Source of the DNA: a virus
Lineage: Duplodnaviria > Caudoviricetes
Strand: one strand, 5' to 3'
Length of the DNA stretch: 35,542 nt
Virus record (IMG/VR): IMGVR_UViG_3300032255_000171
Location: 1-35,542 of that record
Of this stretch, positions 1 through 35,206 are shown piece after piece. The notes under the pieces were generated by a model. It did no database searches. It saw nothing but the letters and a program-made list of their open reading frames with translations, and was not told the origin of the DNA. Each line of letters starts with the position of its first letter. The first letter of the stretch is position 1. Both the position numbers and the translations under genes were made by a program.

Positions 1-276
1 ATGGAGCCTAACATGTTCGGTAGCGGCCTCGGAATTGTAATATTCTTATTTTTAATTGTACTCGCCATATTGTGGTTTCTTCTCCCATTTGCTGTTTTTG
101 GCATCAAAGATAGGCTTGATAACTTTGTTACAGAAGCCAAATCAACCAATAAACATTTGGATAATCTGAGAGCTGAAATAGATGAATTACGTGATTCTTT
201 GGAGGCTGCTTTAGCCCAAAATAAAGCCGAGATTGATGCTGATGAATCACCATTATCCAGCCCCCAAAGCTCTTAA
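1..276 (+). CDS. Hypothetical membrane-anchored coiled-coil protein
   Basis: Long N-terminal hydrophobic segment (GLGIVIFLFLIVLAILWFLLPFAVFGI) then a heptad-rich tail. Convergent with the methyltransferase stop; could be prophage cargo or host. Confidence 0.7.
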   Translation: MEPNMFGSGLGIVIFLFLIVLAILWFLLPFAVFGIKDRLDNFVTEAKSTNKHLDNLRAEIDELRDSLEAALAQNKAEIDADESPLSSPQSS

Positions 277-307
277 TATAACCCTGCTAACGTTCACCAG
301 TTTCTAA

Positions 308-583
308 TTATACAGCTAAACTCTGTAAAATTCGTCGTGCTCACAATTTGGACAAACGTTATCCTTTCCTTTAACCCCTAATTTTTTTAGCGATAAAGAA
401 GGTATTTTTTTCATAGTATTTTCATCACCGATCCAGCCGCATAAGCAGTACTCAATCTGCTGTATAACAATACGTTCGTTCTAACCGCCTAAATTGTCGC
501 GGCTTTTTTGTTCAGTTGCTTCGTTTAAATTATTCATAATTTAATATCCTTGGTCTCGTTACCGGCGGCAGCACAACTCGGCG
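308..583 (+). mobile_element. Integron-type gene cassette (276 bp) inserted in the methyltransferase gene
   Basis: Begins TTATACAGC (308-316), the exact reverse complement of GCTGTATAA (459-467) at its own R'' box, and ends at the G of GTT (583). Deleting 308-583 rejoins GAG CTG ATA ATT AGA AAC TGG TGA. Confidence 0.88.
316..537 (-). pseudogene. Cassette ORF: small CxC/CxxC Zn-ribbon-like protein with an internal amber codon
   Basis: AAGGA RBS then ATG 537. Manual translation: MNNLNEATEQKSRDNLGG*NERIVIQQIEYCLCGWIGDENTMKKIPSLSLKKLGVKGKDNVCPNCEHDEFYRV*. The final TAG lies at the cassette edge. Confidence 0.7.
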
Positions 584-589
584 TTATCA
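462..589 (+). other. attC: attC recombination site (128 bp)
   Basis: R'' GTATAAC 462-468; 5-bp spacer; L'' GTTCGTTC 474-481 pairs with L' GCACAAC 571-577 leaving C477 extrahelical; second extrahelical A484; CCGCC/GGCGG stem; 5-bp spacer; R' GTTATCA 583-589; AT-rich terminal loop. Confidence 0.88.
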
Positions 590-4405: not shown

Positions 4406-4852
4406 TTAAACTGGCTCCAATGAATATTCAAACATCTGCTCAAATGGTTGGCCGGTGGCTTTGTAAACTCGCACCAATATTCCTAGCGTATTTTTTTTAA
4501 CCCACTCAGCTTCCACTTCGAGTTGACTGGCGACCTTGTCATTTAATAACCATTGAAGTGCAGACAATGCATACTCGCGCCCTCTCCTTAATACCTGGTC
4601 AGTTTGCTTTTCGCGATTCAACAACCACAATAGTGAGCCAATCATGTCACCCTGAATCGATGAAAATTCATCCGCCCACCACCCACAGCGGTTATCTGTG
4701 CCGTCTGGCAGATTATTATCGCTATCAAAAAAACGGTCTGTAAATAAAGAAATAATAATTGCTATGCGTAAACCACTATCACTTTGCAGATCAGGGCCGT
4801 TAATTAATACATCAAAGCCTAGGGTTTCATCTTGTTTAAGTGCTATATCCAT
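4406..4852 (-). CDS. Baseplate protein Mu gp46-like
   Basis: AIIISLFTDR, GWWAD, IGSLLWLL.REK motifs. Confidence 0.92.
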   Translation of the reverse strand: MDIALKQDETLGFDVLINGPDLQSDSGLRIAIIISLFTDRFFDSDNNLPDGTDNRCGWWADEFSSIQGDMIGSLLWLLNREKQTDQVLRRGREYALSALQWLLNDKVASQLEVEAEWVKKNTLGILVRVYKATGQPFEQMFEYSLEPV

Positions 4853-17791: not shown

Positions 17792-19015
17792 TTATCTTCC
17801 CCACAGTAAAAAACCTCTGCGTTGCTTCTCTAAATAACCTGTTTGTCTTACGGGTATAAATGTCCAGGCTGCTAACATGCCTTTAGCCACGTTCGCAACA
17901 ACCAGTGTGCCCCGGTCTTTGTCATCCAGTTTTACTCTTTTCATGTAACGACTACGCAAAACCACTTTGCCTGTGCCTTTATGTTTTTCGAATGTCATCC
18001 AGACTTCGAAGGGATCTTCTAATGTCTCCTGTAACAGTGGCAGATATTGTGAGCGTTTTACATCGACATGCTTTGCCAGTGCTTCTGCATTCACTAACAC
18101 GTTTTGTTTTTTTGATTGAATGACTTTTTCTTCTGCGCCTAATAATTTTTGTAACGCTTTTGTTACAGCTGCCTGGTCTTTTAACTTGGGGCCTAGTTTG
18201 TTTTTTGGTTTATCGAGTGGAATCCTACCTGGTCGATTGTAAGTTTCAGGGCTACCTTGTGTGAGTGGCTCCCATGCATCACGCCCCTGGGCCCTCCATG
18301 AACTCATTGCATCATCACTGAGTTGTTTGCCCCAGGCGGCATTGCCTGGATTATATGCAAAGCCTGGATCAATTCCTTTTGGCACTTTAACAGTGCGAGG
18401 ATTTGGCCCACGTTTACCGACTGTTTTTTCCTCATACTCAATAGGTGGTGCTTGTTTTGATACCTTCAGGCCCATGCGTTTTACATCACGATCTGAGGCC
18501 ATGAATTTTTTGCACTGACAACCCCAGCCATTTGAAGGCGTCCATGTGTCCCACCAGGGATCATCTAAAGGAAGTACTACGTTATTATTTGCCAGGTGTT
18601 CCGGGCGGGGTACTGCTGAGTCACCATGTTTATATATACCATAGGGTCTAAATTTACGTAACTTTGGATCCTTCATTTGTTTTTCACGACCCGCATTATA
18701 TGCCTGGCGAATGTTAGTATCGTAAATAACTCGTGTGCGCCAACCACGTCCACCTTTGTATGGCCAGCCATGTTTTTTTACAATGCCATCGAAGTCATTG
18801 CGGAAGTCTTCTAGCGTTGTGCCTTCACTAATAGCTTTATCAATTGATTCACGAAAGTCTTTTAATAAATCTTGTTTTGTGGCACCGGCAATTGTAAATG
18901 CGCGGGCATGCATGCCTTCCCAGATGTCTGTCCATGATTGTGTGGGCAGGTTTATTTTTTGACGGAAGAATTTAATTCCTTCATTGAAGGGAAGTGATTG
19001 ATAATTAACTGACAT
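17792..19015 (-). CDS. MuF (gp30) minor head protein with C-terminal PBECR2-like nuclease-fold domain
   Basis: LPF.E.I.FFRQK, AFTIAGA, R.R.IYDTN, PRPEH, P.NGWGC.C, GIDPGFAYNPG; C-terminal DPFEVW...RY...WTFIP...YLEKQRRG.LLW. Confidence 0.88.
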   Translation of the reverse strand: MSVNYQSLPFNEGIKFFRQKINLPTQSWTDIWEGMHARAFTIAGATKQDLLKDFRESIDKAISEGTTLEDFRNDFDGIVKKHGWPYKGGRGWRTRVIYDTNIRQAYNAGREKQMKDPKLRKFRPYGIYKHGDSAVPRPEHLANNNVVLPLDDPWWDTWTPSNGWGCQCKKFMASDRDVKRMGLKVSKQAPPIEYEEKTVGKRGPNPRTVKVPKGIDPGFAYNPGNAAWGKQLSDDAMSSWRAQGRDAWEPLTQGSPETYNRPGRIPLDKPKNKLGPKLKDQAAVTKALQKLLGAEEKVIQSKKQNVLVNAEALAKHVDVKRSQYLPLLQETLEDPFEVWMTFEKHKGTGKVVLRSRYMKRVKLDDKDRGTLVVANVAKGMLAAWTFIPVRQTGYLEKQRRGFLLWGR

Positions 19016-35029: not shown

Positions 35030-35075
35030 GTTATGTTTAAAAGCCGATTAAACACCAGGTAATCAGCATTTAACC

Positions 35076-35147
35076 TTGTCGCAATTCATGTGTCGTATTT
35101 TTCCGATATCCTCAAAATTCCTGAATATCGGCATTTTGTCGCAATTC
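35076..35147 (+). repeat. Candidate transposase-binding end repeats
   Basis: TTGTCGCAATTC at 35076 and 35136 (60 bp apart), partial TGTCGTATTT at 35091, downstream of c where the Mu left end lies. Confidence 0.6.
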
Positions 35148-35206
35148 TGGAAATATCTATTTAAAAGCTCTATCGCTACCAAATAGATACTTAAATCCCG
35201 TTGTTT

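Follow-up and report, generated by a model that had tools for sequence, protein, structure and literature searches.

A decayed, reverse-oriented attC-type cassette at a target site lacking G in a Mu-like prophage

Introduction

Cassette insertion by the integrase IntI is not confined to attI. Loot et al. (bioRxiv 10.1101/2022.09.11.507474) describe widespread insertion outside attI, at attG sites with the consensus GWT, and SALINs (a single attC site with a coding sequence and no other att site or integrase nearby), which arise by attC × attG recombination and number 3,400 in RefSeq. The use of secondary non-attI sites by IntI, on which a sequence-only reading of the present locus had relied, is therefore already published in that preprint. 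The same authors cite the aadB cassette as a natural secondary-site insertion in the plasmids RSF1010 (pIE723) and pRAY, and a secondary-site origin of CALINs (two or more attC sites) is mentioned by Cury et al. (PMC4889954). Phage-borne attC sites and CALINs without an integrase were reported by Qi et al. (2023; PMC9892861); five of six tested phage attC sites recombined with IntI1, and illegitimate or off-target homologous recombination was proposed as the entry route. The requirements of IntI1 for its partner were measured in PMC2811028: identity is required at the first position, where a mismatch costs two to four orders of magnitude, and recombination of a wild-type GTT attC with an ATT attI1 proceeded at 3.4e-3 of the wild-type rate (about 300-fold less), the mildest of three substitutions (Table 4 of that paper).

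Here we describe an insert in a stretch of prophage DNA of 35,542 nt, which was analysed as a whole and is called the window. The adjacent intI and attI of a complete integron are absent from it. One attC match was found in the 35.5 kb where a CALIN has at least two, and the arrangement of a SALIN, a single attC with a coding sequence and no other att site or integrase nearby, is present within the 35.5-kb window. The insert departs from the described systems in its target, in the orientation and type of its gene and in its state of decay.

Materials and methods

Sites related to that of the window were collected by pattern searches. A 16-mer from the 3' arm had at least 121 matching loci among metagenome contigs and 20 among viral contigs, and two gapped patterns gave 8 and 11 additional loci, partly overlapping. 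An upstream R''/L''-like motif was present at 11 of the 121 metagenome matches obtained, and eight of these were attC-like by eye. A structural filter over all pattern loci retained 27 distinct sites, from which a home-built covariance model (R1) was prepared with the window's own site excluded. Methyltransferase endings were compared in the best 80 of 590 confirmed phage homologues. The crossover was placed at the G|TT of attC by convention. Genome G149 (locus L251) was excluded throughout.

Results

Prophage context

The 35,542-nt record is a provirus, 94% complete by CheckV, with a Mu-like gene set comprising Mu transposase (MuA), a MuB-type ATPase, Mor, GemA and Mu head, portal, sheath, baseplate and tail proteins. 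Named relatives of the MuB-type protein (61–64% identical) come from gammaproteobacteria, and the database places the protein on a 401,576-bp contig. The host is likely to be a gammaproteobacterium, as judged from such sequence relationships; similar attC sites and IntI occur in this group. The insert is located where the late region ends, inside a D12-class adenine methyltransferase gene (Table 1).

Other features of the window were recorded alongside. Positions 1–276 (+) encode a predicted membrane protein of 91 aa, convergent with the methyltransferase end and with weak PHROG matches that include a moron-class membrane protein; the gene is likely an accessory gene at the phage end. A second cassette around it, suggested by a TAAC after its stop, was rejected because R1 gave no match. 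No Mu-end motif was seen in 1–293, so that the phage end probably lies to the left of the window. Repeats of TGTCGCAATTC at 35070–35185 resemble the terminal repeats after the methyltransferase in locus L004 (3370–3420) and are likely a Mu-type left end. Beyond the repressor and the presumed phage end, 35207–35542 (−) holds a second, short Mu Gp27-family gene (111 aa, E = 5e-9), which may belong to a neighbouring prophage remnant. At 17792–19015 (−), a head protein of the Mu F type is encoded in fusion with a PBECR2 nuclease-like domain. Promoter and terminator scans returned chance-level hits only. Shewanella prophage M16-3 was considered as a Mu-like precedent and dropped, as it is described as near P2-like phages (PMC8541194).

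Table 1. Features of the insert and of the interrupted gene (positions in the window)
Feature	Position	Strand	Remarks
Displaced last methyltransferase codons and stop	294–307	−	Beyond the left junction
Inserted cassette	308–583	+	276 bp; crossover slides over shared TTAT (308–311/584–587)
Cassette start (original R' arm)	308–316	+	Exact 9-nt complement of 459–467; preceding base A, not G
Cargo gene	316–537	−	73 codons; start inside attC loop; in-frame stop at 483–481
attC-type site	462–589	+	R'' 462–468 (GTATAAC), spacer 469–473, L'' 474–481, variable terminal loop, L' 571–577, spacer 578–582, R' 583–589
ATGA overlap	534–537	−	Methyltransferase frame enters attC and stops on cargo start codon
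Shine–Dalgarno-like AAGGA	547–551	−	9 nt before cargo ATG, inside attC loop
Hybrid R'	583–589	+	G from cassette, remaining bases from target
D12-class adenine methyltransferase pseudogene (5' part)	584–1183	−	Deletions of 128 bp (~1105/1106) and 20 bp (~875/876)

The attC-type site

The element at the right end of the insert is an attC-type site by its sequence and predicted fold, and recombination by IntI is putative. The sequence-only reading had placed a complete set of attC elements here, and each of its coordinates was borne out. The R''/R' and L''/L' boxes are inverted, with 5-bp spacers and one L-box mismatch, at 480, and a G–T wobble lies in the stem at 483. When folded, the bottom strand adopts the canonical attC hairpin as its minimum-energy structure, in which the bases opposite C477 and A484 are unpaired and form the extrahelical G and T; the top strand of the integrated form does not give that hairpin. 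R-box pairs mostly reach 0.9–1.0 in the circular form versus 0.4–0.8 in the integrated form. The folding energy was no better than that of shuffled sequences (z = −0.25 for the integrated form and z = −1.1 for the circular form). The complementarity that had been claimed between the cassette start and R'' is exact over nine nucleotides, and the 9-mer is unique on its strand in the 35.5 kb, with about 0.003 copies expected in 400 nt.

With R1, 459–591 scored 34.5 bits (E = 1.4e-6) against 10.6 bits for the next best match in the 35.5 kb, a test that is partly circular because the training sites were gathered with patterns from the window's site; the scan gave no second attC in the 35.5 kb. In an outside check, R1 matched in 15 of 151 sampled genomes of the class, with bacterial attC sites at 31–43 bits. 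IntI scored above the TIGR02249 cut-off in four of five tested genomes with R1 sites, and one IntI lay about 4 kb from its site. L-box covariation among the 27 sister sites amounted to 19 cells changed on both sides, as high a value being reached in 0 of 500 shuffles; the figure can be inflated by related sequences. An Rfam search of 1–1500 gave four chance-level matches, none of them relevant.

Insert boundaries

Removal of 308–583 had been said to restore the end of the methyltransferase, and the resulting ending does match the homologue family. Homologue-type endings were produced by six of 11,752 trial deletions, all of them one 276-bp event slid across TTAT. The sequence-only reading implied that homologues should end in an ELIIRNW-like manner; LIIRNW ends were found in 10 of the 80 phage homologues, and the distance from E to the stop is identical in 54 of the 80. 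The GC content of the cassette is 38%, versus 44% for the methyltransferase and 42% for the window.

No near-identical empty-site allele was found among the homologues, the closest of which are about 80% identical in protein. The contigs of one sequencing run that contains the stretch, and may be its source, also yielded none, with nothing else over 300–590 at 85% likeness, a level at which the scan is no proof of absence. No second copy of the insert was detected in the following searches. The cassette DNA gave seven short chance matches to plasmids, and in phages it matched 42 records, the 20 matches listed all covering the methyltransferase part only. The attC DNA gave only 13 short weak matches in 400 sampled and scored genomes of the class. 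A 23-mer from attC had no match in viral contigs, a 20-mer had three in 185,579 genomes (none attC-like by eye) and R1 had none at 21 methyltransferase loci of other phages.

The reversed cargo gene

The cassette carries a small zinc-finger-type gene in reverse orientation that starts inside the attC loop, a feature overlooked in the sequence-only reading. On the top strand there is no ORF of 25 aa or more within 308–461, and the sole ORF with homologues lies on the opposite strand; the top-strand ORF ending near R'' that defines a canonical gene cassette is absent. The AAGGA stands where long sister sites have GGAG and ATG: this ribosome site and start codon occur at the same offset in six of seven such sites, four of which begin MQE(L/V)NE..EQ, as does the cargo N-terminus.

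The last 50 residues of the cargo are 84% identical to an uninterrupted protein (P0001). A full-library search with the cargo returned 19 matches, of which three long repetitive proteins were ignored. The family shares a CxxC...CxxC motif in a 14-sequence alignment, from which we infer that it is metal-binding, and the window copy alone is without the first cysteine, which is replaced by tyrosine. The predicted structure is a small β-rich domain (pLDDT 87). Fold searches with this model gave no match at E ≤ 0.001, the only similarities being weak ones to rubredoxin or zinc-ribbon folds and to small phage proteins, and no family was assigned by Pfam or PHROGs. The cargo is likely a pseudogene of a small metal-binding phage protein. 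Distant relatives in seven viral loci are ordinary genes among small phage genes, with an attC match at none of the seven; two of these loci lie in Mu-like early regions, as judged from their neighbours. By these sequence relatives the cargo family is phage-like. A search for P0001 in viral contigs gave 20 candidates, none of which was confirmed. The N-termini of P0001–P0003, read from the peptides alone, look like translated attC arms.

Orientation in sister cassettes

The main ORF was reversed in 44 viral sister cassettes, forward in three and tied in three (50 scored), as called from the longest ORF in loci that are partly non-independent, some viral loci sharing cassettes. This tally kept 52 of 78 R1 matches (15 loci on 14 contigs), the matches dropped being 13 from metagenomes, two duplicates and 11 with E > 0.001; two of the 52 lay too near an edge. 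In 37 of the 50 scored viral sites the reversed ORF stops at most 40 bases from the called cassette start. Bacterial sites called in the same way were forward in 15 cases, reversed in one and tied in five (21 scored, from 24 matches with the three weakest dropped).

The viral contigs L214, L216, L208, L223 and L210/L211 contain five to nine attC sites per 4–6 kb, almost all with small reversed genes, and many genes in these arrays terminate on a TAA made by the cassette's own start. In L216, the site at 4570–4654 and the cassette upstream of it form an apparently forward cassette (a 163-aa ORF ending near R'') within an otherwise reversed phage array, which may be a captured bacterial-type cassette. 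At about 440–1190 of L208, a reversed ORF of 233 aa, DNA methyltransferase-like by eye (DPPY motif), fills a whole cassette of the phage array. No tyrosine recombinase (PF00589) was found in the five sister phage records L210, L214, L216, L219 and L223, of which a single one reaches 90% completeness.

The target site

With A at 307, immediately before the cassette start, the target reads A|TT and differs from attG as defined by Loot et al., which has GWT from −1 to +2 around the cut. A G at 307 would need a threonine codon; the corresponding C occurs at that codon position in none of the 80 methyltransferase homologues, and 69 of the 80 have isoleucine, the residue that the present A encodes. 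In sister phages G precedes 44 of 48 called cassette starts, 23 of the 44 being G by construction because each is the end of another attC; among starts not tied to another scored attC the count is 21 of 25. The 3' (right) arm of the target matches the R' arm of the cassette at eight of nine bases with one gap, so that most of the R box remains paired after integration. CAGC occupies positions 5–8 in the target and 6–9 in the cassette's own arm; the published CRGM motif (6–9) describes hotspots only. Because an ATT partner is tolerated at the reduced rate given in PMC2811028, insertion here would be rare but allowed. Since the target is without the G that IntI normally needs, catalysis by IntI is likely but not certain.

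Decay of the insert and of its target

What remains is a relic. A stop codon interrupts the cargo, which has also lost a cysteine, and the methyltransferase has two deletions, both frameshifting relative to five homologues. Two related contigs in the run containing this DNA have exactly 128 and 20 extra letters at the deletion points. In run X1, two other contigs of the same sample (records 2 and 3) contain related methyltransferase genes that have neither deletion, one contig being at about 27 times the depth of the prophage contig. The insertion swaps the last four methyltransferase residues for 16 new ones that end on the ATGA overlap, an arrangement that is now inactive and suggests coupled translation when the insertion occurred. 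A single transition would explain both the cargo stop and the G–T wobble of the attC stem, which coincide. Re-excision needs a partner without G, and this copy is therefore likely stuck.

Discussion

Origin of the insert

In our judgement the insert is probably a backwards phage-type cassette that was excised from the reverse array of another phage, inserted in trans by a host IntI at a site without G and has since decayed. The enzyme would have acted in trans because a single attC cassette sits precisely at a non-attI site in a prophage with no integrase: a search of the record for PF00589 at E ≤ 10 gave no match, and no tyrosine recombinase was found. The statement of the sequence-only reading that no intI or attI lies in the 35 kb agrees with this result and with a left junction that consists of methyltransferase coding sequence. 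A different phage or prophage with a reverse-cassette array would have supplied the cassette, released by attC × attC recombination. IntI would then have cut the folded bottom strand of attC at AA|C and joined it to the double-stranded target, the junction being fixed by replication; the R-arm match of the target to the cassette may have favoured the site despite the missing G. Its reverse orientation with respect to attC would have placed the gene co-directional with the phage genes and, given its own ribosome site and the ATGA overlap, it would have been read from the phage transcript. Loss of its conserved last residues would have inactivated the methyltransferase, unless that gene was already defective, and deletions and point changes would have accumulated.

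Two other histories concern the left junction. An attC circle made by an integron-type system may have entered by microhomology recombination, through TTAT and the near-matching R' arm, or by a tyrosine recombinase other than IntI that does not require the G. Such an entry would suit a target without G, its exact TTAT match and near match (eight of nine bases, one gap) to the cassette start, and the high cost of a first-position mismatch to IntI1 (PMC2811028). We nevertheless regard it as unlikely. The circle could have opened at any of 276 positions, and the break lies at most four bases from where attC is cleaved; among the three substitutions measured in PMC2811028, ATT is tolerated best; and no tyrosine recombinase was found in this record or in five sister records. 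Alternatively, IntI may have used a canonical G|TT site whose G at 307 later became A; the region is decaying, and two other lesions of the cassette (the stop at 483–481 and the change of Cys to Tyr) could each stem from one GC-to-AT transition. This sequence of events is highly improbable in view of the homologues, among which the codon change that it implies, threonine in place of the isoleucine found in 69 of 80, has no example (C in 0 of 80).

The remaining alternatives concern the nature of the insert itself. The sequence-only reading had an integrase acting in trans load a host-integron cassette into a transposable phage, which thereby became a vehicle for cassettes. The trans-acting integrase accords with a precise single-attC insertion without an integrase of its own; the typical host cassette does not stand, the present one being reversed, phage-type and not empty. 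That an ordinary cassette, gene-less or forward, was loaded on a transposable phage that now delivers it draws on a real attC, a precise insertion, a Mu-like prophage that is apparently near-complete (94% by CheckV) and a likely gammaproteobacterial host from a group with similar attC sites and IntI. However, the gene is reversed and starts inside attC, like phage sites and unlike most bacterial sites, and its relatives are phage genes. The orientation and cargo largely refute this version, which we hold to be quite improbable. The notion of the phage as a vehicle is weak for this copy, whose cargo is broken, whose recipient gene is a pseudogene and whose left junction, lacking G, would hinder clean excision. 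The TTAT at both junctions could also be the 4-bp target duplication of a small transposon or MITE, or the arrangement could be due to chance; there are no terminal inverted repeats, the TTAT repeat is fully explained by the R box, and a MITE would not be expected to score on the attC model, to have such sister sites or to contain the 9-nt internal complement, so that this explanation is almost certainly wrong.

Significance

The insertion of a reversed cassette in trans, as preferred here, would have left a clean natural footprint from which both junctions and the ancestral gene end can be recovered. A reverse-oriented phage cassette would have moved as a discrete attC unit into an integron-free phage, which would support integron recombination as a route of phage accessory-gene exchange, and the window offers a testable natural example of insertion at a site without G. 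The weight of the case is limited in that solo cassettes and phage attC sites have already been published and this copy is decayed. A broader proposal, for which we see the balance as even, is that phages run a mirror-image cassette pool of their own. Small early-type genes would be reversed on attC sites that supply the ribosome site and start codon, would be moved by borrowed host IntI and would spread between unrelated phages, including to sites at gene ends that put them straight into a phage transcript. The insert in the window would then be the footprint of array seeding in a transposable phage, its G-less target chosen by mimicry of the R arm.

Comparison with known systems

In openly accessible abstracts and papers on phage attC sites, solo cassettes and inverted ORFs, our search gave no description of reversed phage cassettes with a start inside attC. 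The closest category is the SALIN of Loot et al. (bioRxiv 10.1101/2022.09.11.507474), with which the insert shares one attC with a coding sequence, integrase-free surroundings, a precise insertion within a gene at a non-att site and a junction at the R' cleavage point. It differs from the SALINs described there in having A|TT rather than GWT, a reversed gene that starts inside attC and a prophage gene as recipient, and, unlike the assay products of that work, it is a natural and decayed event. Like the phage attC sites of Qi et al. (PMC9892861), the present site is phage-borne and integrase-free; their minimum of two attC sites excluded solo sites, and the text consulted describes neither reversed genes nor an empty-site junction. 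The aadB insertions in RSF1010 (pIE723) and pRAY are likewise complete single cassettes placed precisely outside an integron in a mobile element. In those cases, as cited by Loot et al., the recipient is a plasmid and the cassette has a forward resistance gene and a resident promoter, whereas here the recipient is a phage and the gene is reversed, phage-type and now broken. The pairing of a GTT attC with an ATT partner corresponds to that measured in PMC2811028, where the partner was a mutant attI1; the window would be a natural genomic case. The insert thus works like an attC × attG insertion, but without a canonical attG target or a canonical cassette.
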